IMG/VR virus record: IMGVR_UViG_3300045988_094874
Location: 231-64,230 of that record
Reading direction: 5' to 3' (one strand)
Length of the DNA: 64,000 bases
Origin: a virus
The notes beneath the pieces are model-generated. The model did not search any database and had not been told where the DNA came from. It saw nothing but the letters and a program-made list of their open reading frames with translations. Made by a program: the position numbers and the translations under genes. Of the stretch, positions 8,205 through 43,874 are shown piece after piece. Each line of letters starts with the position of its first letter. Positions within the stretch are counted from its first letter, which is position 1.

Positions 8205-8212
8205 TATAAAGA

Positions 8213-24216: not shown

Positions 24217-26061
24217 ATGAAACTAAAATCATTGTCTACGGTACGCCTGCATCAAATGACCGTGTTGTTCGGAAAATCTGGTTCAGGCAAGGCAGAATAT
24301 GTAGAAAACAAAATCTACACCCCTAGTGGACCTAAACGCTTTGGTGACTTAAAAGTCGGTGATTATGTATTTGACCGATTTGGTAAGCCTACAAAAGTAG
24401 TTGGAACATTCCCACAAGGAGAGATTGACGCATATGAAGTAACTCTAGCAGATGGACGTACAGTAATCTGTAATGATGAGCACATCTGGACCACAGTAAC
24501 CTCACGAAATAGTCTTAAGGATTATACATTACGTGAAATTATTGACACAGGTGTTACTATCAAAAAGGGAGGGATTACTCGTAACCGATTTTATATTCCT
24601 ACCCATAGCTACGTCCAATTCAAGGAGCAAGAAGTTAAGGTACACCCTTATCTTGTAGGAACTTTTATTGCAAATGGAGCTTTACGCTCTAAACCTCTCA
24701 CACTATGCTCCGATGACATTTTTGTGGTAGAAAAAGTTGCTAAGATTTTAGGGGCTACTTACAAGAAGAACTCAGATAAGAATTTTAGCTATACTTTTCG
24801 AAAAGAAGGACACATTATCAAAACGGAAGAGGTATTCACAGAGTTGCTTGGTAAGTATTCTCATGAGAAGTTTATTCCTAAGGAATACCTATTTAATAGT
24901 GTAGAAGTTCGTAGAGAGCTCCTCCAAGGACTAATGGATAATGATGGTTCTATAACACCTAAGCATTCTGGAGCACACCCTTCATATTACACAGTAAGCC
25001 CTAGGCTTGCAGATGATGTAGTATTTCTTGTAAGAAGTCTTGGGTATGAGACTTATGTATATGTAGATGAACGTGAAGGGAAACGTACAGGATATGACAT
25101 TGGACTTAGAGTACCTCCACGTGAACGTAAATCACTATTCACATTGCCTAGGAAGAAAGAACGTTCTCTAGCTGTTGAGGGCAACTGCTTAAGACGACGC
25201 TATGAAATGGTTGGTATTGCTAAAGTTACAAAGCTTAATAAGAAGTTACCTATGATGTGTATTAAGGTAGATAATCCTGAAAGCTTGTACTTGTCTAATG
25301 AGTTTGTAGTAACTCACAATACTTCCGTAATCAACTCACTTCCGGGTAAAACTCTCATCATTGACACTGACCGTGGGTTAGCTTCTGTAAGCCCCACTGA
25401 TAATGTTGATGTAGCTGAGTGTTACAACTGGGAAGACATTCTTGAAGCATTTGCAATCGCTAAGACAGGCGATTATGAAAGCATTGCTGTTGACCACTTT
25501 ACAAATGTCCAAGAAATGTGCTACAAACATATTATGGAAAAATACAAAGTGGATAAAATGCAAATCCAGCATTATGGAGAAGCTTCTCCATTGCTCAAAG
25601 GACTTGTTGACCAGCTGGTCGGTTTTAGCTATGATGGTAAGAACGTCCTTGTACTTGCACAGGAAATGAGTATTAACGTTGAGGAAGATGAGGGAGAAGA
25701 TGTACCACGGGTAATCTGCCCTAACGTATCCCCAGCTGTTCGCTCTTACTTGCAAGCCTCTGCACGGATTGTAGCCCATACACAGAAGGAAAACAAGAAG
25801 ACCTTTGAAAATGGCAAGAAATCCATTGAGGAAGTTTATATTGCTCAGGTAGCAGGTAACCCTATCTTGACTACTAAAGTTACACGCAAGCCGGGAATTG
25901 AAATTCCTAACAAGATTAAGAACCCTACGTGGGCTAAGCTCACTAAACTTATCACAGGAGAAACCGCTAAGAAGGCTAAGCCTGCTAAAGAGGAAGAAGC
26001 CCCTGTGACAGAAGAAAAACCAAAACGCAAACGTGCTACTAAGAAATCAGAAGAAAAATAA
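24217..26061 (+). CDS. Sak4-like (AAA_24) recombination ATPase interrupted by an intein in the Walker A P-loop
   Basis: The extein reconstitutes LFGKSGSGK|TSV (GKSGSGKT), then LIIDTDRGL (Walker B) and IAVDHFT. K/E-rich C-terminal tail. Confidence 0.65.
   Translation: MKLKSLSTVRLHQMTVLFGKSGSGKAEYVENKIYTPSGPKRFGDLKVGDYVFDRFGKPTKVVGTFPQGEIDAYEVTLADGRTVICNDEHIWTTVTSRNSLKDYTLREIIDTGVTIKKGGITRNRFYIPTHSYVQFKEQEVKVHPYLVGTFIANGALRSKPLTLCSDDIFVVEKVAKILGATYKKNSDKNFSYTFRKEGHIIKTEEVFTELLGKYSHEKFIPKEYLFNSVEVRRELLQGLMDNDGSITPKHSGAHPSYYTVSPRLADDVVFLVRSLGYETYVYVDEREGKRTGYDIGLRVPPRERKSLFTLPRKKERSLAVEGNCLRRRYEMVGIAKVTKLNKKLPMMCIKVDNPESLYLSNEFVVTHNTSVINSLPGKTLIIDTDRGLASVSPTDNVDVAECYNWEDILEAFAIAKTGDYESIAVDHFTNVQEMCYKHIMEKYKVDKMQIQHYGEASPLLKGLVDQLVGFSYDGKNVLVLAQEMSINVEEDEGEDVPRVICPNVSPAVRSYLQASARIVAHTQKENKKTFENGKKSIEEVYIAQVAGNPILTTKVTRKPGIEIPNKIKNPTWAKLTKLITGETAKKAKPAKEEEAPVTEEKPKRKRATKKSEEK
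24292..25320 (+). mobile_element. intein (343 aa) with a LAGLIDADG endonuclease domain inside the ATPase P-loop; N-terminal residue is Ala
   Basis: Starts AEYVENKIY directly after GKSGSGK. Internal LVGTFIANGALR and LLQGLMDNDGSI LAGLIDADG motifs. Ends VVTHN followed by +1 Thr. Confidence 0.6.
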
Positions 26062-27449: not shown

Positions 27450-27915
27450 TGAAGGTTACGAAAAAGAAATATTCGAGTTAAATCGAAATATCCCAAACAG
27501 AGTAGTCGGAGAAGATGGCACTCTCTATGACACAGAGGGTAATGAGATTTCCCTTGATGAGGCTATCAAACGCTATGTTGCCCTTGAGCGTGAAGTCAAG
27601 CTACTAGCGGCTGTTAAATCTACTAAGAGCAAGCTTCGCACAGAATATACCACCAAGCGGAAGCAGACGCTCCGTAAGGAACAAGACCTGTATTACCGTA
27701 TCATTGCTGATTTGCAAGAGACAAAGAAGCTGTCTAAGGCTGTAGGACTTGCTAGAAACACCCTTACCACACGCCACGGAAGGAAAAGGAAGAAGCCTAC
27801 TGTGAAAGAGGCTAAGGCTAGGCTCATGAAGGCTCTGAAAGAGTATGAACGAGCTAAGGACCGTGCAAAGGAAGAGCGTCAGAGAAAAAGATTACAACAA
27901 AAAAAGACCAATTAA
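27430..27915 (+). CDS. basic coiled-coil protein
   Basis: K/R-rich C-terminal half (RKRKKPTVKEAKARLMKALKEYERAKDRAKEERQRKR). Last + strand gene before the convergent terminator. Confidence 0.5.
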   Translation: MSAKIFDEGYEKEIFELNRNIPNRVVGEDGTLYDTEGNEISLDEAIKRYVALEREVKLLAAVKSTKSKLRTEYTTKRKQTLRKEQDLYYRIIADLQETKKLSKAVGLARNTLTTRHGRKRKKPTVKEAKARLMKALKEYERAKDRAKEERQRKRLQQKKTN

Positions 27916-27930
27916 GGTCTTTTTATTTTT
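27899..27930. terminator. bidirectional rho-independent terminator at the convergence of the + and - modules
   Basis: AAGACC-aattaa-GGTCTT hairpin flanked by an A-tract upstream and TTTTATTTTT downstream. Stops of both convergent genes fall inside it. Confidence 0.7.
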
Positions 27931-28762
27931 AGCAATTACAGTCCTTCTTAGGTACTTCTGGGGTCTTCAAGCAATCAGGAAGTCCTGTTCCCGGAATAGG
28001 GCGATACTCAACCTTGATATTATGCACACGGAATGTACCTGATGAAGTATTGTTCTGGATAACCTCTAGTACAATATGCTGTCCCTTAGGTAACACAATG
28101 GTGTCTGAGCAAGGCATAGCTCCATCTGTGAGCCCTGTCATTTGCCAGTGGATACCACGTTGCTTAACCATATCAGACTCATCACCTTGCCAGCCCTCAC
28201 CGTCTGTGCGGACTACAAAGGTCATTGTATTATCCACAGCAGGGTTCAGCTCATTACCGTCAGCACACCAGCGGATATAGCAGTGCATGTCTTGGTCAAA
28301 AGTACCGCGCTTACCATCATCAATGCCTCCTTGGGTATCCCAGCCATATTCTGAGTCCTTGTAGAGGTTGATAGCATACCGTGTCATGATAGGCTTGTAG
28401 AAGTTTTGTCCTTCTACTCCTGTGTGTCGGTAATACTTAGTTTCATAGCCCTGATTACCTTGAGCTTTCAGGTACTCTGTGATACATTGAAGCAAGTCCC
28501 AAATAGCACAGATATTCTGGATAACATGCTCAAATTGACAGGCAATCTTCTGAAAAGCACGTTTAAAAAAATTCTTATCATAGCAGTCCTGATTTTGGGC
28601 TGCACAGGCATATCTTCCGATACCCTCGTTGTTCTCTTTCCTTAGAGAGTCACAGTCTGCTGGGTAAATGTCCTCACAGGCGCAATCCTCATACCAGCAC
28701 TTATCCTTATATCCTTCTTTGTATGAAGCCATTATCTTCCTACCTTTCCTTGAGCTATCCAT
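27929..28762 (-). CDS. Cys-rich distal virion protein (fibre-like; carries the shared N-terminal module)
   Basis: CWYEDCACEDIYPADCDS ... FKRAFQKIACQFEHVIQNICAIWDLLQC matches the N-terminal module of 31487, 33208 and 33695. C-terminal DCNC. Confidence 0.5.
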   Translation of the reverse strand: MDSSRKGRKIMASYKEGYKDKCWYEDCACEDIYPADCDSLRKENNEGIGRYACAAQNQDCYDKNFFKRAFQKIACQFEHVIQNICAIWDLLQCITEYLKAQGNQGYETKYYRHTGVEGQNFYKPIMTRYAINLYKDSEYGWDTQGGIDDGKRGTFDQDMHCYIRWCADGNELNPAVDNTMTFVVRTDGEGWQGDESDMVKQRGIHWQMTGLTDGAMPCSDTIVLPKGQHIVLEVIQNNTSSGTFRVHNIKVEYRPIPGTGLPDCLKTPEVPKKDCNC

Positions 28763-29475
28763 TTATTGTCTAAGTAGATACGGTTAGCTCCAAATCCTTC
28801 TGTCTTAGCCTTGCTCTGTTCAATAGTTGAGTTCGGAGGAACTTTCCATGTTCCATTAGCATATACTTTCATATCTTTATTGAGCGTAGTGAATGAGGTA
28901 AACTGACCTCCTGCTGTCTGTCTGATAGCCCAAGGCTTAATCATCACAGCTGGTGAAATAATAATCTCAGATGGTATAGACCAATTTAAGAATATCTCAG
29001 AGGTTTTGTTTCCTGAAAACCAGCTATGCTCAAGCTTAGCTACACTAGCTGAGGAGTTAGTAGTGTACAGGTTAAGCTCTACAGCCTTGTTAAATGGTCT
29101 GTTTACATTCTCATTAAAGCCTCCTGTGATAGGGAACTGCTTCTCAATCACAAGCTGGTCAAGGGCAGTGAATTTCATTCTAGCGTCAGTACCAGAAGGG
29201 TTCACAGGGAGAACCTCATACTTAGCATTACCTACATAAATCTGTAGGTTGTTAATAATGATTTTGTCTCCCTTGTAACCAAAGCTAGGAATGACTTGGA
29301 ACTGAACCTCACCCTTACCTACCACAAATTCTCCAGCTCTTTCTTCCCACACAGCGGAAGCATTATCCCAGCCTGAACGTACCTTAAACTCAGAGGCGTT
29401 TGTGCTCTCGAGTCTGAACTTTGTATTAGCTTTAGCCCAAGTAAGGGCTTCTTCCTTTGTGTTGAATGTTGGCAT
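28732..29475 (-). CDS. hypothetical virion-module protein (possible carbohydrate-binding or fibre accessory)
   Basis: ORF without the Cys module; beta-rich composition. Confidence 0.45.
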   Translation of the reverse strand: MPTFNTKEEALTWAKANTKFRLESTNASEFKVRSGWDNASAVWEERAGEFVVGKGEVQFQVIPSFGYKGDKIIINNLQIYVGNAKYEVLPVNPSGTDARMKFTALDQLVIEKQFPITGGFNENVNRPFNKAVELNLYTTNSSASVAKLEHSWFSGNKTSEIFLNWSIPSEIIISPAVMIKPWAIRQTAGGQFTSFTTLNKDMKVYANGTWKVPPNSTIEQSKAKTEGFGANRIYLDNKWIAQGKVGR

Positions 29476-31487
29476 TACTCTACTCCTCCAGCAAGGTCTC
29501 CAGCGTTGAGCGTGTTAGTTGTTCGGATAGCCCTGTTTCCATTAGGTGTTCCACCAAATACGTTAATATTACCTGTAGCAATATGACGGTCAGTCTTAAG
29601 GCTACCAGCAAGAATGTCAGTACCTCCAACTTCCCAAGCACCTGAGTTTTTAAGGTCTTCGAGAAGCTTCTTCACAGCTGTCTCTAGGCTGTTATACTTA
29701 TTCTGTAGTGACCTAAACTCTGAACGCTCTACCTTAGTAGCCAAGTCACCGAACGTTGGTAGGTCAGTAGTATTCACAGAGAAGGTAGTACCATTAAGGC
29801 TCAAGCCGTTTCCTGCATAATACTTAGTATCATTATCAGCTCTTCCTTCTAGGGCAGTTACCTTGGTGCTAAGTCCTTGTACAGTAGTATTAAGCCTGTT
29901 AATACCTTCTGTGACATCGGTATTGCTTGGTACGTCTAGTGAGCTTGCTCCCCAAGAACGAGGACCTGTTCCCTCATAGAAACATACACCAGCAATCTGT
30001 AGCACAGTATTGTTAGGTACATCAGCCTTCATACGTCCTAAAAGAATTTTAGGTGTAAATGGTGCTGTATTATATACTTGGAAGCTTACTGTGTATAGAG
30101 CCCAGTTAGCATTTACTTTCACAGTAACATCACCATCAATATTTGTGTTCATACCTCCTGTGGAGCTATAAACAATACAAACTTTTGCAGGTGAGAATAG
30201 GTGATTACCAAAAGTAATCTCACTAGTTGCCTTAGCAAAGAAGCTCACTGTGTACCAAGTTCCCGGATTGAGAGGATAGCCTAGCTGAGCACCAAAGGTA
30301 TCAAATGTATCAGTTCCTGTGCCTCTATTTTTCTCACTGATAGCTAGTCCTAAGTAGTTCCCATTAGGAGCTCCATAGGTGTTAGCAGAGCCGTCTCTAG
30401 TGCCCTTAATGAGGTTATCAGCACCAACAAGTAAAGTACCAGAAGGCTCAGGAATACTATCAGTCACAGGCTTGGTAGTCAATGTCAGGTAAGTAAATCT
30501 CACAGGGAAGGTCTTAATATCAATACCGTCAATACGAACATTAAGGGCATTTACTTTAAGGTCTTTATTAGCAAGAGTCCATGTGTAGGTAATCTCATTA
30601 CCTTTAGCCTGCATAGACTGTTTACCTGCAAGCCAGCCTACATACCAGTTAGTCGGATTAGCCATGTCGTAGGCTTCCAGAGCAAGCTGAGCAGTAGCAG
30701 GGATAGCTGAGATTGTATTAACATCAAACTTGGCTTTAATATAAAGCTTGTCTCCTACAGAGAAACCTAATTCTCCTAAAGACTTCTTATCTGTTAAATA
30801 ATACAATGGAGCAGAATAATAACCACTACCTTCGTCACGTTTACCTACCCAGCCGTTACCATGGTATTTGTTGATGTAGTTCACAAGAGGAACTTCAACA
30901 GCCTTTGTCTCTAACGCTGGAATTTTATCAATGTTAGCCTTTACAGCAGGGTCAAGTTTAACTTCCCAATCCTTAGTGGCTGTCTGTGTACTAACAATCC
31001 CGTCTTTACCGATTACTGACACAGAGGCTACACCTTTGGGGGCTTTAAGCTCACCAATTTGGCGCTCTACATTCTCTAGGCGCTCATTAGTAGGTACTTT
31101 TGTGCTGTCTAGTGACACAGTGTAATCATTATTAGTCTTAGCTACCAGAATACCATTGCCGGGCTTCACAGTGGTGATAGTGTCTCTATCCTGTGTGACT
31201 ACAGCAGAGATAGTTCCATCAGGTGAAATAGTGATACCTTGACCTGCTTTATAAGTTTTACCTCCATTACCAGAGCCTGTACCATTAAGCTTAATCATAG
31301 CGTCCCTAGCACGGTTTAAAATCCATACATCTTGATTGCTATCCATGTAAGCATGGTTGCGGTCAGCATAGAATGGGTCGGGCTTCTCAGACTTGACAAT
31401 TAGCCAAGTACCTTCATCAGGAAGGCAATCTTGGCAGTAGTCACGTCCATCATTACAATCACACTCATAGCATTTGTTACAAGTCAT
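29475..31487 (-). CDS. tail fibre / receptor-binding-like protein with an N-terminal Cys knot
   Basis: N-terminus MTCNKCYECDCNDGRDYCQDC. Long Gly/Thr/Asn-rich beta-type body with a coiled-coil segment near the C-terminus. Confidence 0.5.
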   Translation of the reverse strand: MTCNKCYECDCNDGRDYCQDCLPDEGTWLIVKSEKPDPFYADRNHAYMDSNQDVWILNRARDAMIKLNGTGSGNGGKTYKAGQGITISPDGTISAVVTQDRDTITTVKPGNGILVAKTNNDYTVSLDSTKVPTNERLENVERQIGELKAPKGVASVSVIGKDGIVSTQTATKDWEVKLDPAVKANIDKIPALETKAVEVPLVNYINKYHGNGWVGKRDEGSGYYSAPLYYLTDKKSLGELGFSVGDKLYIKAKFDVNTISAIPATAQLALEAYDMANPTNWYVGWLAGKQSMQAKGNEITYTWTLANKDLKVNALNVRIDGIDIKTFPVRFTYLTLTTKPVTDSIPEPSGTLLVGADNLIKGTRDGSANTYGAPNGNYLGLAISEKNRGTGTDTFDTFGAQLGYPLNPGTWYTVSFFAKATSEITFGNHLFSPAKVCIVYSSTGGMNTNIDGDVTVKVNANWALYTVSFQVYNTAPFTPKILLGRMKADVPNNTVLQIAGVCFYEGTGPRSWGASSLDVPSNTDVTEGINRLNTTVQGLSTKVTALEGRADNDTKYYAGNGLSLNGTTFSVNTTDLPTFGDLATKVERSEFRSLQNKYNSLETAVKKLLEDLKNSGAWEVGGTDILAGSLKTDRHIATGNINVFGGTPNGNRAIRTTNTLNAGDLAGGVE

Positions 31488-33208
31488 TAGTTAGTTTCCT
31501 TTCCTCCTGTGCTGTAGTAGTTCACACAGGTTCTAATCATACCTTTACCTAACAGGCTATCAGTTCCCTCTACAAACTCAGAGGTAGTCTGCTTATTAGG
31601 CAATAAAGTATATCCCTTACCATTATACCATACTGAGTCAGGAGTAGGGGCACAGAAAGTGCTCTTTTCATGAACAGCTGGTGCTATAGGTTTATTAGTT
31701 GCAGTGTCAATAAAGGTTGTTACTGTGATATAGTCAAGTCCCTTAGTCTTAGCAAGCTGAGCCTCTTTTCCTACAGGAGGACACACAGAGCAGGCTGTCT
31801 TACACTCTCTTAGAGGGGCTAGGGTACAGCTACCACAGTTCAGCTCATTCAGGAAGCCTGTGCTCTCATGAATGTTGATGTAAGAAGGCTCAGGAGGCAG
31901 TTCTTTCAGCTTAGCCTGATAAGGGGCTACTGGCATTGAACTTATCACAGGAGCTGTATTCAGGTTAAATCCTGATACATTCTTCTTGTAGCTTCCTACA
32001 GTAAACCTGATAACATCTACAAATACTCCCCACACAATAGCCTGAGGACCTTCTCCAAGAGGATTTCTTGTGTAGTTACTTAGTCTGCCATTCTGTGCTG
32101 ATACATAAGAGCCATTGATAGGTACAGTATATGCTGTATCAACAGTGAAATAAGTACCCTGACCTGACTCAGCACCAAATGGTTGCAGATTTAGGATAGC
32201 TGTTTCCCTGTTTGTAGGCTTAACTTCCTTACCATCAGCAGTAAAGAAACGTGTCTCCACAGTAAGCTCAGAGCTATATTGTTCATTGCTACCTTCTGTG
32301 TGAATAGTGATTTGTTTATATGGATTAGTAGGTACTCCAATAATCACAGCCTTCTTAGGGTGCTCAGTTGACACAAGAGTAATTCTCATCTTGATAGATG
32401 AAATCTCTTTCCCTGATAAAATAGTAGTTGCATTTGCAAAGTCTACCGTCATTTCCTCACGCTCTTTTAAATAGGTATAGACCAATTCATTTGAGGTAAA
32501 GGTAGAAATGTCAGGGATAGGATTAACACTTGCAGGCTCTTTAGTATCATTAGCCAGCTTACGTCCTCTAATTGTCTTAGCCATTACAGCATTAGGAGAA
32601 ATTTGAAGGTACTGACTAGCTACTGCCTGAGGGAAACCTTCCTTGGTCAAGTTAGCTTGTAGGATAGAGATACGGTTTGCATACTCTTGCCTATCTTGCT
32701 GGAACTTAGCTAAAGCACCTTTATTATACTCATTAACAAAGGAAGCTTGCTCATCATACTCTCTCTTAAGCTTATTGTTATAAGCAATAGCGTCAGACAC
32801 AGTAGAGTTAGAAGCAGTGACCAGCTTATTAGCATTTCTTGTAATCTCATTGATACGTCCACACAGAACCCCATTAGCTGTATTAAGAGCCTCTAGGTTC
32901 TTTTTATTTGCCTTAATCCGGTCATTGAGTATGTTAGTTAGTCCAAGGGTATGGCACAGTACGTTTATAAAGTTGTTTACAAACATAAATACATTACTAA
33001 ACCCTTTAGAGCTAAGCTCCCTCATGTCACAGGGCATACCTGTTTCAAACATAGGAGCTATAGGCTCTAGTAGGTCTTTGTGTAAGGCTTTAACCTTGTC
33101 ACAGGTATCGTCACAGGTCTTGCCAATCTCTATACATTTAGGTTTGCAACCATTATCGCATTGACACTCCTTGAACTTGCACTTCATACAAGTTACACAG
33201 TCTGCCAT
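31487..33208 (-). CDS. tail fibre-like protein with an N-terminal Cys knot plus the shared module
   Basis: MADCVTCMKCKFKECQCDNGCKPKC ... KALHKDL ... NNFINVLCH, then coiled coil and a beta-rich C-terminal domain. Confidence 0.5.
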   Translation of the reverse strand: MADCVTCMKCKFKECQCDNGCKPKCIEIGKTCDDTCDKVKALHKDLLEPIAPMFETGMPCDMRELSSKGFSNVFMFVNNFINVLCHTLGLTNILNDRIKANKKNLEALNTANGVLCGRINEITRNANKLVTASNSTVSDAIAYNNKLKREYDEQASFVNEYNKGALAKFQQDRQEYANRISILQANLTKEGFPQAVASQYLQISPNAVMAKTIRGRKLANDTKEPASVNPIPDISTFTSNELVYTYLKEREEMTVDFANATTILSGKEISSIKMRITLVSTEHPKKAVIIGVPTNPYKQITIHTEGSNEQYSSELTVETRFFTADGKEVKPTNRETAILNLQPFGAESGQGTYFTVDTAYTVPINGSYVSAQNGRLSNYTRNPLGEGPQAIVWGVFVDVIRFTVGSYKKNVSGFNLNTAPVISSMPVAPYQAKLKELPPEPSYINIHESTGFLNELNCGSCTLAPLRECKTACSVCPPVGKEAQLAKTKGLDYITVTTFIDTATNKPIAPAVHEKSTFCAPTPDSVWYNGKGYTLLPNKQTTSEFVEGTDSLLGKGMIRTCVNYYSTGGKETN

Positions 33209-33705
33209 TAAAGCTCCTCCTCTGGTAGTGCTTCAAGAGTGGCTACAAGTCCTTCAAAAGAGCTGTCAGCTACCACAATCTTAGTTGTGGCATACTGATT
33301 GTAAAGCTCAAGGATTTTATTCATCTGAGCTTGCAGGTCTTTCATTCCCTGAACCATTTTCTCTTGCTTCTGGTTAATGCACTTGTTGTTATCATCAATA
33401 ACCTTAGTGCGTGAATAGATACAGCAGATATTCTTAATAATCCAACACAGCTGTAATATCATATTCTTGTAGACACAGGAGATACCCCTGAATAGCCTGC
33501 CTAAGAACTTAGGAATATCACAGGCTAGTAGGGCTTCATTCCGCTGTGCCATTAGCTTAATCTTGTTATCATTTAGGTCATGTAAAGCGTTACATGCGTC
33601 CATTCCGGGAGTAATAGTGGGGCAGTCACACAAAGCATATTTCCTTGCCTGACATGTAAAGTGCCCACACTTATCTCCACAGGAACTACATTCCTTAACA
33701 GTCAA
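33208..33705 (-). CDS. small Cys-rich protein carrying the shared N-terminal module
   Basis: ECSSCGDKCGHFTCQ ... NALHDL ... NMILQLCWIIKNICC, then coiled coil. Confidence 0.5.
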   Translation of the reverse strand: MTVKECSSCGDKCGHFTCQARKYALCDCPTITPGMDACNALHDLNDNKIKLMAQRNEALLACDIPKFLGRLFRGISCVYKNMILQLCWIIKNICCIYSRTKVIDDNNKCINQKQEKMVQGMKDLQAQMNKILELYNQYATTKIVVADSSFEGLVATLEALPEEEL

Positions 33706-35938
33706 ATTCTTTCACCTCACAGCTTCCACAATCAATCTCAACCTTAGGTATTTCAGGTACATGAGGGATTTCAATAGGGATTAGGTTATCCCTTGTGAAG
33801 TTTACCTCAAGCTGACCATAGGTTGGGTCATAAAGCCAAGTATCTCTAGTAGACAATACGTGAACAGCTCCTCCTGTAGAGCCTGTGGTCTGTAGGGGTA
33901 CTGTTCTATTATACTCAATTCTTCGATTAGGGCTTTCACTAAAGGAACGGAACGGGTCATAGGCTTTGTAGTAAACCTGATTGCCTGCTCCATCAAATAC
34001 AGCCATGGTAGCTGTAGAAGCCCCTGTCATAGCTCCTGTAGGCTCATATCTCACAGAGGTGATAGTAACTGCCTTAAGGAAAGCCTCTACATAGCCTGTA
34101 GTAGTATTGAGCCTGAACTCACGCTCTACAGTACCATTAATGCTACCATTACCAATTACAGCTCCGCCTACCATGTTCCACTCAATAGTGAAGTTAGTTC
34201 CTGAGGTGGATACTCTTGTGTAAGTACCTGAACCTGCTTGTGAACCTCTAGGGAACATGTTCATTCTTACTGTTTGGTTAGCAATCTCTACAGACCTCTT
34301 CTGTGCGTCGTCTCTGAGCTTCTGGATGAGCCTATTTCGCACTGTATTACCTATGTCAAGGTTATTCTTAGCAATCTTACTTAAACGCTCACAGGAAGCC
34401 TGCTGTGCGTTCTGGATACACATCTGCTCTTTACGAAGCTGGTCTGTTTGCTGTCTAAGGCATTCAAACTCTTCTCCTACATGGCAGAGCTGGTTGATAA
34501 TATTCTTGGTAACACACCAGAGCCCATAAGCTGAACGTCTAATAACCTTAGGCAGGTTCACTACATACTTATTTCTAAGCTCATGAACTCCTGCTCTCTG
34601 GTAGCGCTCTTGTGCAATAGCCTTAAGGTCTTCACAGACATCAGGTCCTCTACCGATATTCTCACATTCCTCACACTCATTACATATCTTACAAGGACGC
34701 TTTGGTCTTGGTCTAAGAGGTCTAGGAGTAGGAGGCACAGGAGGTTCTCCGGGGTGATTAGGTTTATCAACTCTAGGAGGCTCTTGTGGTGGGTTATTAG
34801 GTAAGTTAGGCACAGGTAGCTGAGGCTCTAGTACAGGTCTAGGAGGCTCTTTCGGCTCTTCTGGCTTAGGTGGGATTGGGATATGAGGTACTTGGACATC
34901 AAGTCGGTCCATAGTAAAGTTCACATTCAAGCTACCTGAGGTAGGCTCAGCAATCCATGAGTCATAAGTAGAGAAGATAACCACCTGACCATCAGGCTGG
35001 CCTGTTTGGTAGATAGGTGTTTGTCGCTCCATAACCACACGCCTATTTGGTGTATCTGAGAAGCTTTGATAAGGGTCATAACTCCTTGACCAGATAGGCT
35101 GACCTTGGTGATTATTGATTGTAAACACAGCTCCAGCAGAAGCCCAAGTGTCATTAGGGTTCATCTGATATTGCACAGACTGGATAGTATAGGCTACAAT
35201 GTAAGCCTCAATTCTATCTTCCCGTCTCACAAAGCGATACTCTACATTACCACGAACAGTACCAGTACCTACGATACGCCCTGTGTTTACCATGCGCCAT
35301 TGTACTTCAAAGTTGTTACCGTTTGAGCTTACATGAGTATAAGCGCCTCCAGCTGTGCTAGAGCCATAGGTAAATACGTTCATGCGTGTGGTACGTTGCA
35401 CACGGTCTAGGGCTTGTTGTAGTGCCTCATTCTCAAGTCTACGTCTACGCTCAGGGTCAACAGCCTCATCGTACTCTTTCTTCTTCTGACGATAGATTAC
35501 AATATCCTTGTCATATTGAGCCTTATCAGCTGTGTATCTGTCCTGCTTAGCCTTATTACGCTTAGTCCGCTCTTCGTTTTCCTTAGTGATACGAGTAATC
35601 TCAGCCTGGATAGCGTTGCGCTCTTTTGTATAAGAGGCTAACTTCTTATCATACTCAGACTTGTTGATGAGATAGGTTTCATAGCGCTCAAGGAGCTCTT
35701 TGTATCGTGCCAAGGCATTGTTATAAGCAAGTAGCTTGCGCTCATACTCAGACTTTTCCTCAGGAGTGATACCTCCATTGTAGTTGCACTTCTCATCAAT
35801 CCATTTACACAGGTCTAGCTTATAGGCTTCCATGAGTTGCTCATTTTTAGCCAATTCCTGCTCAGTCCACTTAGTCCCGTCTTCCTTAGGAGGGCACATA
35901 GGGTCTGGAAATACACAGGGTAAATTCTTATTAGGCAT
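33695..35938 (-). CDS. large modular fibre/adhesin-like protein with an internal duplication
   Basis: Architecture: coiled coil, then a roughly 170-aa domain, then a Pro-rich linker (PKPEEPKEPPRP...), then a Cys module (CKICNECEECEN...NIINQLCH), then a second copy of the roughly 170-aa domain, then C-terminal CGSCEVKEFDC. Confidence 0.55.
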   Translation of the reverse strand: MPNKNLPCVFPDPMCPPKEDGTKWTEQELAKNEQLMEAYKLDLCKWIDEKCNYNGGITPEEKSEYERKLLAYNNALARYKELLERYETYLINKSEYDKKLASYTKERNAIQAEITRITKENEERTKRNKAKQDRYTADKAQYDKDIVIYRQKKKEYDEAVDPERRRRLENEALQQALDRVQRTTRMNVFTYGSSTAGGAYTHVSSNGNNFEVQWRMVNTGRIVGTGTVRGNVEYRFVRREDRIEAYIVAYTIQSVQYQMNPNDTWASAGAVFTINNHQGQPIWSRSYDPYQSFSDTPNRRVVMERQTPIYQTGQPDGQVVIFSTYDSWIAEPTSGSLNVNFTMDRLDVQVPHIPIPPKPEEPKEPPRPVLEPQLPVPNLPNNPPQEPPRVDKPNHPGEPPVPPTPRPLRPRPKRPCKICNECEECENIGRGPDVCEDLKAIAQERYQRAGVHELRNKYVVNLPKVIRRSAYGLWCVTKNIINQLCHVGEEFECLRQQTDQLRKEQMCIQNAQQASCERLSKIAKNNLDIGNTVRNRLIQKLRDDAQKRSVEIANQTVRMNMFPRGSQAGSGTYTRVSTSGTNFTIEWNMVGGAVIGNGSINGTVEREFRLNTTTGYVEAFLKAVTITSVRYEPTGAMTGASTATMAVFDGAGNQVYYKAYDPFRSFSESPNRRIEYNRTVPLQTTGSTGGAVHVLSTRDTWLYDPTYGQLEVNFTRDNLIPIEIPHVPEIPKVEIDCGSCEVKEFDC

Positions 35939-35995
35939 AACTCCTCCTATTAAAAAGAAAGAGGAAACATATAAATATTTCCCCCTCCTAAACCC

Positions 35996-37399
35996 TTAGG
36001 CTTGTTCCTTAGGCTCACCTGCAATAACTTCGGTAAGGCTCTTGTTAGCGTCTTCGATAGCTTTTGCGATAGCCTCTTGTGTCACATCATCAGACTTCTG
36101 TGCGTCAATGAAACGTGAAAAATCTCCATCTGGTAGGTTAAGGTGTACGTGTTTAGCGTTTTGAAGCTCACCTACAGTCTTAATGTCTCCAATTCCCCAG
36201 ACAATTCCATTAGTAATTGCAAGGTAACCTTGCTTACCTGAATTGCTCCGGATAACATAGTTTGTCATTTCGTCTTCCTCTTCTTCAAATTGATTGTTTG
36301 CAATATCATCACTAAGAATAGCAATGTTTTTATCTAAGCCACCAGCAATACCTGTACTAGTGAACTGCCACCAGCGAATACCTTCCATAGTAGGATATAC
36401 TTCCCACACAGGAGTAGGAGTTACCTCATAGTTAGGGTAGGCTGCAATCCACAGAGAATTAGGGTATTTAGCTAGGATAGCTTTGTAGTTTACGTTTGCT
36501 AAAGTATATGGCTTGTATGAGTAGTAGATAGGTTGGTAACCTTTACCTGCACAAGCGTCCATGAAGGCTAAGATAGCCTGTGTATTGGCTTCCATGTCTC
36601 CACTAGCATTATCCTCATAGTCACAGACCAGATAATTCACAGGCTTGCTAGGTAAATTGCTCAGGAAGAAATTAGCTTCTGCAAGAGCTTGTCCTACGTC
36701 ACCTCCAAACCGTGCAAAGTGGTAATAACCAATAGGCACAGAGGTGTCAGCCTGAGCTTGTCTAACCTCTGACATGTAGGTAGTGTGCTCACTTACCTTA
36801 ATGATTGTCTTGTTAGTTCCTGCTTGCTGTGTCATAGCTGTGAGGTCTGCTGGTTGGTAAGCCGATACATCTAAGAAGTAATCGTCCTTCTTAAGTCCCG
36901 GAGCTCCATTTACGAAGCCTCGTCCACTAGCTGAGCTAGTTTGTTGTGCTTGGTTAGCCTGACCACCGACTCCCGGTTTAAGACGGAAGGCTGTATCAAA
37001 GGTAGCTTCATAAGGAAGTCTCACAAGAGAAGCAACTCCTCCTCTATCTAGGCTACTATCAGGTCCTTGGTTTTGCCCTAAGAACATGCCATAAACTCCA
37101 TCAATGTCACTATCAAACACAGCAACGTGAGAGTAAGGAGTCCAAGGGTGGACTTTGAAGATAACCAAGTCTCCCGGTTGTAACATACTAACTTCATCAA
37201 AGTAGTTAAGAATACCATTGCTATGTCTCTGTTCCCAAAGGTCTTGTACAAACCCTGTCACAGTACAGTTAGCATAGGGTATTCCATTTTCAATACAGAA
37301 CTTTGCATAGAAATCCCAGCATTGAAATTGGTACCAACCATCAATGTCATAGCCATTACCAAGCGTTTTGTTCTTAAAATCTTGGTAACTAATAGCCAT
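35996..37399 (-). CDS. endolysin: CHAP peptidase + GH25 muramidase + C-terminal binding region
   Basis: CHAP Cys (FQCWDF) and His (YSHVAVF). GH25 motifs DVSAYQ and GYYHFARF. Directly downstream of the holin. Confidence 0.75.
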   Translation of the reverse strand: MAISYQDFKNKTLGNGYDIDGWYQFQCWDFYAKFCIENGIPYANCTVTGFVQDLWEQRHSNGILNYFDEVSMLQPGDLVIFKVHPWTPYSHVAVFDSDIDGVYGMFLGQNQGPDSSLDRGGVASLVRLPYEATFDTAFRLKPGVGGQANQAQQTSSASGRGFVNGAPGLKKDDYFLDVSAYQPADLTAMTQQAGTNKTIIKVSEHTTYMSEVRQAQADTSVPIGYYHFARFGGDVGQALAEANFFLSNLPSKPVNYLVCDYEDNASGDMEANTQAILAFMDACAGKGYQPIYYSYKPYTLANVNYKAILAKYPNSLWIAAYPNYEVTPTPVWEVYPTMEGIRWWQFTSTGIAGGLDKNIAILSDDIANNQFEEEEDEMTNYVIRSNSGKQGYLAITNGIVWGIGDIKTVGELQNAKHVHLNLPDGDFSRFIDAQKSDDVTQEAIAKAIEDANKSLTEVIAGEPKEQA

Positions 37400-37980: not shown

Positions 37981-38529
37981 TTAAACGTTCTCAGCTCTTA
38001 GACGGTAAGCTCTAATTCCCTTAGGTAATTTTGAGACATCAAATTGTTTAGTTACTTTGTCATAAGGAACAAGAGTATCTCCATAAAAGAAGTTTTTAGG
38101 AGATGACATTATATTAGTAAATGTAGAGTTATCAGTGATATAATTATAATCTTTATTATATACATCTCCAATAGATAGTTTATCTCCTACCAAGTCCTTA
38201 TCTATAAAGACAAAGTTTACATAGTAAGGATTATCAATATCACCATTACCAGTTACAGTTACTGTGTACTGACCTGCGGGTGATGAATAAATATTATCTG
38301 GGTTATATTGAGCTTTTGCAAGCATATACATCAGAGTATCAAACGCCTCTGAGTCATAGTTACTTGAACCCCCACCTGCAGGTAGGTCAACCTCACTCTG
38401 CTGACCATTCTCAACAAGCTTTAGTTTATTACCAGTAAGAGTTAATCCATAGGACTTACCTTCCCCACCTACTTGTGCTCCATCACTAAAGCACTCGCCC
38501 ACATATACATTTACAACTTTATCTGACAT
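37981..38529 (-). CDS. hypothetical virion protein
   Basis: ORF. Confidence 0.45.
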   Translation of the reverse strand: MSDKVVNVYVGECFSDGAQVGGEGKSYGLTLTGNKLKLVENGQQSEVDLPAGGGSSNYDSEAFDTLMYMLAKAQYNPDNIYSSPAGQYTVTVTGNGDIDNPYYVNFVFIDKDLVGDKLSIGDVYNKDYNYITDNSTFTNIMSSPKNFFYGDTLVPYDKVTKQFDVSKLPKGIRAYRLRAENV

Positions 38530-38538
38530 TTATTACTC

Positions 38539-39021
38539 CTAATTTTCTAATCTATTTTTTGTAAATTCTACTTCAACAACTTTATTATCTGCTGAGGTAT
38601 AAGACACAGTAAACTTACCGTTTTCTCCAAGTGACACAGGGGAGCCTCCTGCATTAGCATAGGCTGAGCCACTAGGAGTAATTACATCACTAAATAATGT
38701 TCCGGGCTTACCATCACTTCTTGTGTACTTACTTGGGTCAACTACAAGGGGATTAGCAAATCCTGTAGGGCTTCTAAAGGAAACCACAGGAGACTCTCCA
38801 GAGGAAGTCACATAAGCTGTCTCACTTGTATTTTCTGAATTTATATAATGAAGTCCTGTGTTCTGCTTAGGTTCTTTTCCACAGTTGAGAACTACTTTAA
38901 TGTTATCCCCACACCCTCCTGAGTTGGCAGGGCAAGTAGCCTTGGGGATAGGCTTGTAACCTGTGTAAGTATTGTAAACTACTCCACACAGCTGGTCTTC
39001 TTTTGGTAGCTTATACGCCAT
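38539..39021 (-). CDS. hypothetical virion protein
   Basis: ORF. Confidence 0.45.
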   Translation of the reverse strand: MAYKLPKEDQLCGVVYNTYTGYKPIPKATCPANSGGCGDNIKVVLNCGKEPKQNTGLHYINSENTSETAYVTSSGESPVVSFRSPTGFANPLVVDPSKYTRSDGKPGTLFSDVITPSGSAYANAGGSPVSLGENGKFTVSYTSADNKVVEVEFTKNRLEN

Positions 39022-40936: not shown

Positions 40937-41527
40937 TTAGTTTATGTGACTAAATTTCAAATAAAGGCGCAATGTCACTGTTGCGTCTCCTAGTGCTTTC
41001 ACAGAGAATATCTTTTCTCCGGGACTATACAGGGCTTCTCTTTGCTTATCATTGAGATACCATGCAACTTTCATCAGGTCATAGCCTTCCATGGGATTAC
41101 CATTAGGAAAGATACCTTCTCCGCCTTTAGCGTCTGCAATCCAGTTACACTTCCATATAGCCTTCAAGTAGGGTGTCAGGTCAATCGTCTCGCTGTGTCC
41201 TGTGGTCGCATTGTGAGCAAATACCTCTAAATGCACATCAGACATTGGGCGAACACCTTCTTGTTCCTGCTCTGAGTTATCTCCTTTGTTATTAGTAACA
41301 ATAACCTTAAGAAACCAGCGCTGAAACCTATCCAAATCCCCTGACACAGTGAGGTGGTAATTAGCCGTTGACTTCTTATCACCAACCATTTCCTCTGTGT
41401 TCCGTATTGTGTCTACATAGTCAACACCAAAGAGGTCAGTTACACCCCCACGCCTTTGTCGGCTTGATTGTGTAACCCTCTCTCTAGTATCTCTTACTGT
41501 GTTTACTAATCTAGTAACAGCATCCAT
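40937..41527 (-). CDS. hypothetical tail/baseplate protein
   Basis: ORF. Confidence 0.45.
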   Translation of the reverse strand: MDAVTRLVNTVRDTRERVTQSSRQRRGGVTDLFGVDYVDTIRNTEEMVGDKKSTANYHLTVSGDLDRFQRWFLKVIVTNNKGDNSEQEQEGVRPMSDVHLEVFAHNATTGHSETIDLTPYLKAIWKCNWIADAKGGEGIFPNGNPMEGYDLMKVAWYLNDKQREALYSPGEKIFSVKALGDATVTLRLYLKFSHIN

Positions 41528-42810
41528 TAAGTCACCTCTCTATCCACAGATAAGAACTTGCTGAGCTCTATGTTGAGCACAAGGGAGTTCCCTGTGGAAT
41601 ATTGGTAGCTCATCTTATTAACATAAAACCAGTCATTTGCTCTGAGCACTTTAGTATAGTATTTACTGCAAGGTGTAAGCTCCACAAGGTCTACTCCCAA
41701 GATAAATTTGACTTTATCTCCTACCTGAACCCCTGCTGGCAGAGGTGAAGTAGTCACAGGGTAAATGACCTTCCTCCTTGAAGCTCTCATCTTTCTAATA
41801 GCTGACTTGTACATTTGCACAGTGGCTTTGATACGGTCTTCATCAGACACTTCCTTATTATCACCAGCTATCGCCTGTGTGTCATTAGTAGTAATACTAC
41901 CCCAGTAGAGTTCTCCTGCTTCAAGGGCAATTCCTTCCTCATCTAGGATAGCATACTCATCTTCTGATATGTCAGTAGCGAACACAGGGAGTGGTGGATA
42001 ATCAAAGTGCCTCTGTGAGTTTACAGGTCTATCTGTTTTAATCACAGGGAAGCCGTCTATCATGAGTTTCTTGTCATGGAAAATGTCCCTGAGAGTCAAT
42101 GAGCTTGCTCCTGCGTCAGCCTTATCTGAGCGTACCACAGCAGAGTTCATCACTCCTTGGAAGCTTTCCTGAACTTCTCCAAGGTCTAAGAGGTATGTCT
42201 CAGGTGAGATAAGTACCTCTTTTTTAGCTCCCATTGCGGAGAACGTTACCTTGAAGGGGTCTTTCTTGTCTATGCGCCATTGCATATCTTGAGTCTTCTC
42301 ACAGAGCTTCGTGAGGAACTGTAAGACCGTTTCTTGTGAAAACTCATACTCTATCTTGCGTTCAGTTTCATCTGGAAACTCAAATTTCATTAGGTTCACT
42401 AAATCATTTTTAGCGTCCTTCCAATATTCCTTAACCTTCTTAACAACCTCCTGAACTGTGGTGTCCTTAAAGGTCACGTTAGTTGGGAGGTTTTTCTTAT
42501 CAAGTAGCCCTACTATATGAGTGAGGCTCACAGTACAGGTAGCTGTCTTGTGATTTGTTTTCTTCTCATACACAGTGCCTAGAAAGTTCCAATCATCACT
42601 AGAAAGGCTAATCTGAGTTGTTCCAGTCAGCAGTTTAGCATACTTAGAAGGGATAGTAATTGGAATTGACGGAACTTCCATTAAGTTAAAATCAAGTGAA
42701 AAGTCACCTAAGAAATCCTCAGGCAATAATAGCTGGTCTCTTGAACCGTCTCCTCCATTTATAATTTTCCCTATCATAGTGTAAGCCTTTCGTAATCTAC
42801 ATAAGCACAC
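41527..42810 (-). CDS. tail-tip / baseplate protein (Tal-like by position)
   Basis: Second gene after the TMP. Confidence 0.4.
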   Translation of the reverse strand: MCLCRLRKAYTMIGKIINGGDGSRDQLLLPEDFLGDFSLDFNLMEVPSIPITIPSKYAKLLTGTTQISLSSDDWNFLGTVYEKKTNHKTATCTVSLTHIVGLLDKKNLPTNVTFKDTTVQEVVKKVKEYWKDAKNDLVNLMKFEFPDETERKIEYEFSQETVLQFLTKLCEKTQDMQWRIDKKDPFKVTFSAMGAKKEVLISPETYLLDLGEVQESFQGVMNSAVVRSDKADAGASSLTLRDIFHDKKLMIDGFPVIKTDRPVNSQRHFDYPPLPVFATDISEDEYAILDEEGIALEAGELYWGSITTNDTQAIAGDNKEVSDEDRIKATVQMYKSAIRKMRASRRKVIYPVTTSPLPAGVQVGDKVKFILGVDLVELTPCSKYYTKVLRANDWFYVNKMSYQYSTGNSLVLNIELSKFLSVDREVT

Positions 42811-43874
42811 GCTGTGCTTGATAGAACACCATATACATTTATGGTATTTCGTCCTTTAATTATGCGGAATGGTCCTTCACAGTAAGACAGATTATCTAGC
42901 TTGACAACTTTGTAGTCATACTCAAGACATTCCCAACTACTAGCATACCGTACATTTCCTCTTTGGTCAAGTGTAAGAACCCCGTTGTACTCACCTTTTA
43001 CCTTGATGTTCACGTTGTTTACTGTGATAATTGGGTCTTTGAAATGTCCGAATAGCCCCACTCTCCACTGAGTGCTGTCTAATACTGTATCAGCCTGAAA
43101 CGTCTTGTGTAGTTCTCCATTCACACAGAGGTCACAGAGAGCATGTGCATAAAGCTCTGGCAATGTCTTGCCATCAATTCTAGCCTTTTGGCAGTTATGA
43201 ACTACACGCCATTTACTGTCACAGAGGTCAAAGAACTCATCATTGAAATCAATGTCCTGAACAGCAGAGCAGTAGTCTACCATGTCTTTCATTGCTGAGC
43301 AATTATCATTACAACATTCACACTCTGTGCAAGGCTGTCCCTCATCACAGCAACGTGATTGAAGGCAGTCTGCTTTCATCTGAGTAAAGCTACACAGGTC
43401 GAACCTATCAAAATAAGTCTTGTGCTCACTAGCCTTGTGCCAGACACCCTCTGCATTATTAAACTCAACCTGTAACACAAGGTAGCCATTGTCAGTAAGC
43501 GTCCATTCCTTCTGATGTTGCATACTAGTACAGTAGGCATGACACCAAATAAGCTGGTTACCGCTATCTACAGCCCATAGCTTACCTTTTCTTGTGAGCT
43601 GGTGAACTATGAAGTCATAATGCACACGGATATTCTCATCACTCCATGTGTTTGTCTTTAGAGCCATCTTGAAGCTAATAGTATTGGTATCCACAAGAAG
43701 CTCATCTCCTCTGTTACCAACAAAAGCACCATGAGTGAAAGCCCTTGGAGTTGTATTAACTCTAAAGGCTACACTCTCAGCCTGCTCTTGTATGCTTCGT
43801 GTCCCTGTGAACACAAGGTCGTTATATTGAATATATCGTCTAGGCTTATTTACATTTTCGCCTCTATATCCCAT
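42774..43874 (-). CDS. distal tail protein (Dit-like by position) with a Cys-knot insertion
   Basis: First gene after the TMP. Contains CLQSRCCDEGQPCTECECCNDNC. Confidence 0.45.
   Translation of the reverse strand: MGYRGENVNKPRRYIQYNDLVFTGTRSIQEQAESVAFRVNTTPRAFTHGAFVGNRGDELLVDTNTISFKMALKTNTWSDENIRVHYDFIVHQLTRKGKLWAVDSGNQLIWCHAYCTSMQHQKEWTLTDNGYLVLQVEFNNAEGVWHKASEHKTYFDRFDLCSFTQMKADCLQSRCCDEGQPCTECECCNDNCSAMKDMVDYCSAVQDIDFNDEFFDLCDSKWRVVHNCQKARIDGKTLPELYAHALCDLCVNGELHKTFQADTVLDSTQWRVGLFGHFKDPIITVNNVNIKVKGEYNGVLTLDQRGNVRYASSWECLEYDYKVVKLDNLSYCEGPFRIIKGRNTINVYGVLSSTACAYVDYERLTL

Follow-up and report, generated by a model that had tools for sequence, protein, structure and literature searches.

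The 64,000-nt stretch of DNA analyzed here (positions 231 to 64,230 of IMG/VR virus record IMGVR_UViG_3300045988_094874; hereafter the window) is approximately one whole phage genome. Six genes on its minus strand, designated gpA to gpF, follow a gene for a CHAP+GH25 endolysin and close the late operon (Table 1). Four of the encoded proteins (gpA, gpB, gpC and gpF) have in common a module of approximately 80 residues with seven near-invariant cysteines. On the evidence of its sequence, this module is a real and previously undescribed domain family. The six genes probably encode adhesin fibers of the virion, in which the module would act as a hub for assembly or attachment.

A first-pass annotation of the window had described five consecutive minus-strand genes directly after the endolysin gene. 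The consecutive arrangement is confirmed, but there are six genes, as gpE had been overlooked. The statement that at least four of the proteins start with dense cysteine clusters is true of gpB, gpC, gpD and gpF; the dense cluster of gpA is found at residues 416-435. The central idea of that annotation, one paralogous cysteine-rich module combined with different binding domains, is supported by the results below. The closest cultured or GenBank relative of the phage is Lactococcus phage P087 (Teubervirus), with a Tal protein 31% identical to that of the window.

The seven-cysteine module

Similarity among the modules was assessed by Smith-Waterman alignment against 1000 composition-preserving shuffles per pair. 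The z-scores are 12.8 for gpA and gpB, 9.2 for gpA and gpC, 6.4 for gpB and gpF and 4.9 for gpB and gpC, with the observed score reached by zero to two shuffles. By BLASTP, gpA and gpB match with an E-value of 1e-7. A profile of the four modules matches 53 clusters (50% identity) among 1.84 billion representative proteins with E-values of 1e-3 or lower, 12 of them at 1e-10 or lower (best E-value: 1e-39). When the six-frame translation of the window is searched with the hidden Markov model (HMM) of the family, the matches are exactly gpA (internal), gpB, gpC and gpF. The first-pass annotation had held that its proposal would fall if the N-terminal similarity were insignificant against composition-matched shuffles; the z-scores of up to 12.8 show that it is significant. 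It is extremely improbable that the similarity is a compositional artefact of cysteine-rich, low-complexity sequence. The pairwise scores of gpA with gpF and of gpC with gpF are individually not significant and gpD resembles the other proteins in a short cysteine cluster only (E-value: 0.07), but the four remaining pairs score far above their shuffles, the profile finds independent clusters with conserved non-cysteine positions and fixed cysteine spacing, and the HMM selects four open reading frames (ORFs) and no others. An artefact was rejected on these grounds for gpA, gpB, gpC and gpF.

The module has the signature C-x2-C-x-C..(I/V)..G...C..L...ND.K(I/V)...C(D/N)LP....K.FYG(I/V)WC..KN(I/L)I..(L/I)C(W). 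Its conserved cysteines are at positions 6, 9, 28, 38, 62, 77 and 87 of gpB (alignment A3), and its conserved non-cysteine positions are L, ND.KI, DLP, K.FYGIWC and KNII..LCW. All seven cysteines are present in 48 of the 66 aligned module instances; the fifth is absent from the gpA module and the sixth from the gpC module. A few instances lack the N-terminal cysteine triad, and in one family member (P0018) a 115-residue insertion parts the triad from the module helices. The triad and the four-cysteine helical part can thus be regarded as separable sub-elements. Cysteine makes up 9-12% of the modules, 2.7% of the six proteins pooled and 1.2-1.4% of the proteins of the rest of the genome.

An AlphaFold2 model of gpB residues 1-96, built with the family alignment, has a mean predicted local distance difference test (pLDDT) score of 76.8, with helices above 85. 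The predicted structure is a helical hairpin (residues 37-58 and 64-94) below a cysteine-rich loop. The C-x2-C-x-C triad belongs to the loop, the hairpin holds three further invariant cysteines and the second helix continues as a stalk. Neither Pfam nor the PDB sequences contain a match to the module, and nothing significant was found by Foldseek against PDB. The sole match in PHROGs is weak, between gpB and phrog_22762 of unknown function (E-value: 0.0032). Foldseek searches of BFVD gave near-threshold matches only (E-values: 8e-3 and 3e-2) to family members from uncultured phages, one of which is automatically named 'Adhesin protein'. Literature searches found nothing on cysteine-rich phage anchors, on genes downstream of the endolysin or on P087 adhesion devices, and nothing on GbpC or antigen I/II domains in phages.

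The closely spaced CxxC and CxC motifs, whose spacing is compatible with metal binding, are reminiscent of zinc ribbons, treble clefs and cystine knots. The module differs from zinc ribbons and treble clefs in being a helical hairpin and in having seven conserved cysteines rather than four or six, and no match to such folds was obtained in the Pfam, PDB and Foldseek searches. A cystine knot has six cysteines in a knotted disulfide core, belongs to small, beta-rich secreted domains and requires an oxidizing secretory route. The cysteine-knot anchor of the first-pass annotation was rejected because both fold and compartment are wrong: the predicted fold is a helical hairpin, seven cysteines are conserved, and the proteins carry no secretion signal (see below).

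Two further details of the first-pass annotation had to be revised. The segment of approximately 60 aa that it described in three proteins is indeed shared, but by four proteins and over approximately 80 aa. Likewise, gpD does have the short cysteine cluster noted above, but it is HMM-negative and begins with a different, Cys4 domain. The module had also been described as an N-terminal docking element. It is N-terminal in gpB, gpC and gpF, but internal in gpA and in the 354-aa protein of lineage L047 and the 373-aa protein of L050, and in the 447-aa and 474-aa proteins of L048 it lies C-terminal to a unit of helix, V domain and proline-rich region. The term basal hub therefore suits the module better than N-terminal anchor.

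Domains joined to the module and the gpD-gpE pair

gpA comprises, in order, N-terminal cysteine pairs, a helical region, V domain 1, a proline-rich segment, the seven-cysteine module, a helix and V domain 2, and ends in a short proline-rich segment and a C-terminal CxxC...C. Two stretches match the Pfam family BspA_v (E-value: 4.2e-16), and the two V domains share 39% identity (E-value: 3e-47). The region before V domain 1 (residues 55-190) is rich in lysine, glutamate and tyrosine and is helical as judged by sequence composition only; it has no match to the Pfam A-repeat at an E-value of 1 or lower. An insertion variant of gpA in relatives was considered and rejected, as all orthologues are 747 aa long and the longer tblastn spans are alignment extensions.

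The remaining module proteins are simpler. gpB consists of the module and a helical tail, with no head domain. gpC has the module, a long helical region, a GbpC-type V domain and a C-terminal domain containing cysteines; it is represented by just three homologous clusters (86-91% identity) in 5.8 billion proteins. phmmer searches of PDB with gpC and with gpD gave no match. gpF combines the module with a jelly-roll domain and a C-terminal cysteine pair, and is the last and best-conserved gene of the block in most lineages. Module proteins of relatives add a strong GbpC domain (E-value: 3e-31) and a MucBP domain to this repertoire. The commonest architecture in the family is the module, a coil and a C-terminal domain of the form '...SGAW..NIATGNIN.FGG..DG..FIRTN.G..ENDLAGGI', the type of domain with which gpD also ends. 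The C-terminal domains, earlier described as unrelated, do include differing heads, but gpA and gpC both carry V domains of the antigen I/II type. Depolymerase-like heads, which had also been suggested, were rejected: no enzymatic domain was found, and the heads are lectin or adhesin folds.

At least two cysteines are present in the last 30 residues of 16 of the 54 module proteins. Such a cluster is found in most V-domain-headed module proteins and, with P0055 (cargo untyped) set aside, in all of those that have a complete C-terminus. Two of the six gpF-type proteins have it, the other four having one cysteine, and no protein with the AGGI-type C-terminus does. This pattern is consistent with a return of the chain to the hub.

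The V domains resemble those of antigen I/II proteins (SpaP/P1, SspB and BspA) and of GbpC, with Pfam scores above threshold and a match to the BspA structure 5dz8. gpA and the 447-aa and 474-aa proteins of L048 also share with antigen I/II the order of helical region, V domain and proline-rich region. This order reportedly produces, in antigen I/II, a hairpin stalk of helix and proline-rich region with the V domain at its tip. By analogy, a hairpin stalk of this kind can put both chain ends at the base beside the module, which may explain both the C-terminal cysteines and the position of the module. gpA to gpF have no signal peptide or hydrophobic N-terminus, no transmembrane segment (maximum Kyte-Doolittle score over 19 residues [KD19] below 1.5) and no LPxTG motif, and they have no Pfam match to the C-terminal C1-C3 isopeptide domains of antigen I/II. 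These absences exclude them from the antigen I/II family; in addition, their V domains are fused to a phage-specific cysteine module and encoded in a phage late operon. Sortase-anchored or secreted adhesins were rejected for lack of secretion and anchoring signals, and the cytoplasm is therefore where the proteins are expected to be synthesized and assembled, as virion proteins are.

gpD consists of the Cys4 N-terminal domain, fiber-type repeats, a central region resembling a carbohydrate-binding module, a coiled segment and an appendage-type C-terminal domain. In tblastn searches, residues 345-605 match Streptococcus prophage proteins of the tail-fiber or 'hyaluronidase' kind, and residues 545-668 share 40% identity with a 'tail fiber protein' of S. 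equinus phage pBovineS21 (E-value: 2e-11). The C-terminus matches PHROG 17155 and 7547. gpD is also similar to the ORF16 protein of phage Cp-7, annotated 'Appendage' (33% identity over 152 aa; E-value: 2.6e-18), and the C-terminal domain has counterparts in phages Cp-1, SOCP and SG005 as well, P0023 matching all four phages. In lineage L054, a 298-aa protein with 16 cysteines (7710-8606) has an N-terminus of the type seen in gpD and P087 gp81, followed by four 'IY(V/L)(L/M)PN..AW(I/V)L' repeats with proline- and cysteine-rich linkers. This protein seems to contain the gpD-type N-terminal domain in repeated form.

gpE ends in a tail of approximately 65 aa ('KPWAIR...WI.QGK.G') that is common to the relatives of Cp-7 ORF17, also annotated 'Appendage'. 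Residues 179-246 match the 258-aa protein of L048 (BLASTP E-value: 6e-7), and gpE is the sole match of an ORF17-like profile in the window (E-value: 5e-4). The 258-aa protein of L048 is 49% identical to Cp-7 ORF17 and the 271-aa protein of L049 is 44% identical, while the 401-aa protein of L055 shares only its C-terminal part with ORF17 (26% identity over 129 aa). A gene encoding the AGGI-type C-terminus is followed by an ORF17-like gene in the window (gpD-gpE), L048 (474 and 258 aa), L049 (172 and 271 aa), L055 (684 and 401 aa) and Cp-7 (ORF16-ORF17). In L050, the 373-aa protein joins an ORF17-like domain and the module in one polypeptide, a Rosetta-stone fusion.

The likeness to Cp-7, Cp-1 and SOCP (Salasmaviridae, Cepunavirus) thus has two parts. 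The ORF16 C-terminus is homologous to those of gpD and many small module proteins (up to 66-77% identity in relatives), and ORF16 and ORF17 are adjacent and in the same order as gpD and gpE. In contrast to gpD, Cp-7 ORF16 has no cysteine, and it has no module; its N-terminus is different and is presumably fitted to a podovirus collar. gpE of the window keeps only the C-terminal tail of ORF17.

Genomic context and the probable role of the six proteins

The B-C, C-D, D-E and E-F junctions are 1-nt TAATG overlaps. Each gene is preceded by a ribosome-binding site, and at the overlapping junctions the Shine-Dalgarno sequence lies inside the upstream gene. The gpF start is most likely at 28732 (267 aa) and probably not at 28762, since relatives call the same start and the TAATG overlap fits it. 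Such tight translational coupling suggests a stoichiometric complex.

Gene context was read for seven lineages (the window group, L047, L048, L049, L050, L054 and L055/56); L057 is represented by a 1.6-kb contig only. In all seven, the module genes are the last late-operon genes, just before the convergent early genes. Each locus has two to four module paralogues, and most loci also encode a gpD-type protein, a gpE/ORF17-like protein and a gpF orthologue. The block lies directly behind a Dp-1-type holin or an endolysin in six lineages. In L054, the module genes directly follow homologues of P087 gp76 and gp77, with no intervening lysis genes. The position of the lysis cassette relative to the module genes therefore varies between lineages.

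Two P087 proteins are matched by the module HMM at their N-termini, gp79 (18.2 bits; E-value: 1.6e-6) and, marginally, gp78 (9.2 bits; E-value: 1.1e-3), these E-values being from a search of 11 proteins only. gp78 was labelled 'putative receptor-binding protein' and gp80 'structural protein' by the depositors, and gp81 has a gpD-type N-terminus. The genes for gp78 to gp81 lie between Tal and the holin. Considered together, the arrangements in L054 and P087 indicate that the module genes behave as part of the distal-tail morphogenesis block. P087 also encodes three post-lysis proteins (gp86 to gp88) annotated 'structural protein', gp86 additionally as a 'putative neck-passage structure protein'; genes beyond the lysis cassette can thus encode virion proteins. 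The first-pass annotation correctly placed the genes of the window after the holin-lysin genes, but this location outside the tail block has a precedent in gp86 to gp88.

P087 resembles the window in several further respects. It has the closest GenBank tail genes (Tal, as above, and a gp76 homologue, p196), belongs to the same genome size class, carries a tRNA-Cys gene and has structural genes placed after the endolysin. It differs in that its modules are degenerate (6-8 cysteines in the whole protein) and are encoded before the lysis cassette, its heads are not of the antigen I/II type, and its post-lysis proteins have neither the module nor any homology to gpA to gpF.

The proposed model for the six proteins is as follows. 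As a translationally coupled set, the genes would extend the distal-tail (adhesion device) block, and their products would be added to the virion in the cytoplasm, with the tail tip as the most likely site. The module would be the basal hub that joins the proteins to each other and/or to a cysteine-rich virion partner, and its seven cysteines may hold the hub together, either by coordinating a metal or through disulfides that form after lysis and release. gpA and gpC would display V domains on stalks of helix and proline-rich segments, the chain returning to the base and often ending in a second cysteine cluster, or clasp. gpF would add a jelly-roll head to the hub, and the gpD-gpE pair would be the same two-protein appendage as that of the pneumococcal podophages Cp-1 and Cp-7. 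The attachment site and the cysteine chemistry are proposed with much less confidence than the fiber assignment itself. A distal-tail role in the virion, as suggested in the first-pass annotation, is the best reading in view of the 'Appendage' homology of gpD and gpE, the L054 arrangement and, in P087, the weak module matches of gp78 and gp79 and the annotations of the post-lysis genes.

A candidate docking partner of the module is a cysteine-rich insertion in the Dit-like protein (approximately residues 160-245; ...CCDEGQPCTECECCNDNC...), which holds most of the 19 cysteines of that protein. This insertion is kept in L047 (20 cysteines in the protein) and partly in P087 gp74 (9 cysteines). 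A weak Pfam B_lectin match is found at Dit residues 90-147. The sole tRNA gene of the window specifies cysteine, which fits a high cysteine demand of the late proteins. Phages of the P087 group also carry a tRNA-Cys gene (PMC5371800, Table 2).

Attachment at the neck (collar/whisker or neck passage structure) or capsid, where the proteins would act as long-range adhesion whiskers, is unlikely. Such a location is suggested by the neck-passage annotation of gp86, which is encoded by the first post-lysis gene of P087, by the Cp-7 homologues of gpD and gpE, whose genes adjoin the collar and head-fiber genes of a podovirus, and by a cysteine-rich 278-aa protein encoded at the head-tail adaptor position, where P087 gp64 ('head-tail adaptor') is likewise cysteine-rich (11 cysteines). 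However, BLASTP of gpA to gpF against P087 gp86 to gp88 gave nothing below an E-value of 0.01, the module-type genes of P087 and L054 are in or beside the baseplate block after Tal, and the 278-aa protein is unmatched by the module HMM. More improbable still is that the block is accessory cargo derived from host antigen I/II genes. The products would then be soluble, adhesin-like proteins, intracellular or released at lysis, that bind plaque glucan or salivary glycoproteins or aggregate bacteria. In favor of such a role, the cargo domains are of kinds typical of host surface adhesins, the genes are not hypervariable among close relatives, and their position past the lysis cassette, with a terminator-like hairpin in front, is one where accessory genes are often found. 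It is harder to reconcile with accessory cargo that the block order, including the fiber/appendage homologues gpD and gpE, is kept in at least seven lineages, that the L054 genes are contiguous with baseplate genes and P087 baseplate-block proteins show weak module matches, that the tight translational coupling suggests a stoichiometric complex, and that secretion and anchoring signals are lacking.

A more elaborate version of the fiber model is also conceivable, though doubtful. The module might be a metal- or disulfide-clasped hetero-oligomerization hub that bundles four or five adhesin fibers into a composite appendage, which would bind non-host oral ligands such as salivary agglutinin/gp340, pellicle mucins or plaque glucans. 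The captured V, GbpC and MucBP domains would then park the phage where its streptococcal hosts settle, and the complementary cysteine losses (the fifth in gpA and the sixth in gpC) would mark a specific heteromeric contact. Such an appendage would mimic host adhesins and would be the oral equivalent of the adherence of phages to mucus.

Several observations weigh against the proposal that the six proteins are virion adhesin fibers attached through the module. The phage is uncultured, and support for a place in the virion is indirect, coming from the depositors' annotations in P087 ('structural protein') and Cp-7 ('Appendage'). The module matches in P087 are weak and, as noted, come from a search of few proteins. 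Near-identical loci (n = 25, from metagenome assemblies and IMG/VR; genomes of 63-64.7 kb) all carry the six genes at 86-99% identity. The most variable genes in these loci are instead two small ORFs just upstream of the holin (182 and 160 aa), with identities of 29-84% overall (29-84% and 56-64%, respectively) and one of them sometimes missing; their hypervariability makes them better candidates for the primary receptor-binding protein. The hairpin between the endolysin gene and gpA means that expression of the block could be low, by read-through, or separately controlled. The cysteine-rich loop of the module model is predicted with moderate confidence only (pLDDT 43-68), and prediction of the module is poor in a model of full-length gpF. 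The Dit insertion and the 278-aa protein are both HMM-negative, and their homology to the module was rejected on that ground; in L049-type loci the proteins corresponding to these two have few cysteines.

The interchangeable heads and cassette swapping of the first-pass annotation are seen when distant lineages are compared; the 25 near-identical loci show neither. Within the block, the most variable part is V domain 1 of gpA, with up to 24% non-consensus residues per 25-aa block compared with 0-3% in the modules. Siphovirus baseplate receptor-binding proteins are encoded in the Dit-Tal block, which is true of the L054 module genes and, by weak match, of P087 gp78 and gp79; in the window, the lysis cassette lies between. 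Unlike the heads of such proteins, the six genes are not the most variable in the 25 loci, gpA V domain 1 being only moderately variable. In modular phage receptor-binding proteins, such as BppU-BppL of the lactococcal phages TP901-1 and Tuc2009 and the anchors of Klebsiella tailspikes, paralogous proteins combine a conserved anchor with differing distal heads. The block resembles these systems in having a conserved attachment element, several paralogues per genome and different distal binding domains. It is not related to them in sequence or fold; the module is cysteine-rich and helical and may occupy any position, and here a single operon encodes several paralogues whose heads differ, instead of the heads varying from strain to strain.

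The use of one attachment element for exchangeable heads is already known from phage receptor-binding proteins, as are post-lysis structural genes from P087. What is new is the module itself, for which no family, structure or literature was found, together with its cysteine dependence and its N-terminal, middle or C-terminal placement. Phage display of V domains of the antigen I/II type and of GbpC and MucBP domains, as predicted from the domain matches, is also new. If the proteins are virion fibers, the module would serve to attach or assemble adhesion devices throughout a clade of uncultured streptococcal phages and in the cultured P087 group; being easily recognized, it would offer an annotation handle for genes now called 'hypothetical' or at best 'adhesin'. 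The phage would show the lectin-type V domains that oral streptococci use to colonize teeth and saliva-coated surfaces, which would connect phage adsorption with oral biofilm ecology in a way open to testing. For Gram-positive phages, it would be unusual to stabilize appendages by a cysteine-dependent clasp, combined here with a phage tRNA-Cys. As P087 can be grown, tests of the central claims need not wait for culture of the oral phage.

Genome, host and other features

Replication genes occupy the plus strand from 1 to 27.9 kb. The minus-strand late operon encodes terminase, portal, capsid, a 1508-aa tape measure protein, Dit and Tal and, beyond Tal, a CHAP/glucosaminidase tail lysin, the two small ORFs, two holin-like proteins (in relatives, one belongs to the Dp-1 holin family) and the endolysin. 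Coordinates are collected in Table 1.

Table 1. Features of the window discussed in the text
Feature	Position	Strand	Details
gpA	33695-35938	-	747 aa
gpA V domain 1	34904-35356	-	approximately residues 195-345; PDB 5dz8 BspA V domain, E-value 1.8e-9 at 205-341
gpA proline-rich segment	34694-34903	-	residues 346-415, V domain 1 to module; PHIPIPPKPEEPKEPPRP...RPLRPRPKRP
gpA seven-cysteine module	34454-34693	-	residues 416-495, internal; HMM 5.6e-20; cysteine pattern CCCCVCC
gpA V domain 2	33779-34246	-	approximately residues 565-720; best Pfam BspA_v stretch 579-709
gpB	33208-33705	-	165 aa, TTG start; same length called in relatives
gpB seven-cysteine module	33418-33705	-	residues 1-96; HMM 1.8e-20
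gpC	31487-33208	-	573 aa
gpC seven-cysteine module	32927-33208	-	residues 1-94; HMM 1.1e-13; cysteine pattern -CCCCMC
gpC GbpC-like V domain	32030-32506	-	residues 235-393; Pfam GbpC 8.6e-11
gpD	29475-31487	-	670 aa, fiber protein
gpD Cys4 N-terminal domain	31308-31487	-	residues 1-60; alignment A6 with L047 416 aa, L048 499 aa and P087 gp81
gpD appendage-type C-terminal domain	29481-29855	-	residues 545-669; ...SGAW...NIATGNINVFGG...DLAGGVE
gpE	28732-29475	-	247 aa, no cysteine
gpF	27929-28732	-	267 aa
gpF seven-cysteine module	28478-28705	-	residues 10-85 of 267 aa; HMM 5.4e-19
Terminator-like hairpin with T run	35956-35989	-	in 57-nt gap between endolysin stop and gpA; strong AGGAGG ribosome-binding site after it
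Bidirectional terminator-like hairpin	27901-27924	.	closes late operon, between gpF and convergent plus-strand genes
CHAP+GH25 endolysin	35996-37399	-	directly upstream of the six-gene block
Small pre-holin ORF	37981-38529	-	182 aa
Small pre-holin ORF	38539-39021	-	160 aa
Tal	41527-42810	-	
Dit-like distal tail protein	42774-43874	-	PHROG 16596; 19 cysteines; cysteine-rich insertion ...CTECECCNDNC...
278-aa protein	51809-52645	-	head-tail adaptor position; 17 cysteines; N-terminal CQCFDCNDG...FCW
tRNA-Cys (GCA)	61796-61868	-	ARAGORN; sole tRNA gene in window, near late-operon start
Early-strand ORF	13480-14973	+	497 aa
DNA polymerase	15227-19273	+	1348 aa
Sak4/AAA_24 protein	24217-26061	+	614 aa

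Among 50,697 GenBank phage records, the whole locus has no DNA match by megablast, gpC and the portal have no tblastn match, and gpF has a chance tblastn match only (E-value: 0.7). The gpF family and the endolysin were each used to scan 185,579 bacterial genomes, with no match, and hence there is no prophage copy from which a host could be assigned directly. The host is likely to be a Streptococcus species. The endolysin is 60% identical to prophage lysins of S. agalactiae and S. equi, gpD matches Streptococcus phage fibers, the adhesin domains of the block are of streptococcal types, and the sister lineage L055/L056 encodes a choline-binding-repeat protein. This 329-aa protein (6183-7172) is encoded directly ahead of the holin, in loci with the same terminal module block, and its repeats indicate choline-containing (mitis-group or pneumococcal) hosts for the clade. 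Many of the IMG/VR sample numbers (7000000xxx) are presumably those of Human Microbiome Project samples. The phage is probably a virulent P087-like siphovirus that infects oral mitis-group streptococci.

Several genes of the window and its relatives differ by large insertions. The Sak4/AAA_24 protein is 614 aa long in the window and 270 aa in L001 and L003, and the extra part gives PHROG matches of the intein/homing-endonuclease type. The DNA polymerase is interrupted in the same way. Relatives have insertions, absent from the window, in the endolysin (762 vs. 467 aa) and in the tail lysin (645-764 vs. 463 aa), the latter matching Pfam Intein_splicing. Gain and loss of inteins among close relatives (including L001, L003 and L047) is probable. 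Among the replication genes, the 497-aa early ORF contains an internal start, after which comes a segment resembling a signal peptide (MKNKVKFTAGMIVLAGLLVAPNVLA), and so could encode a secreted or surface protein.

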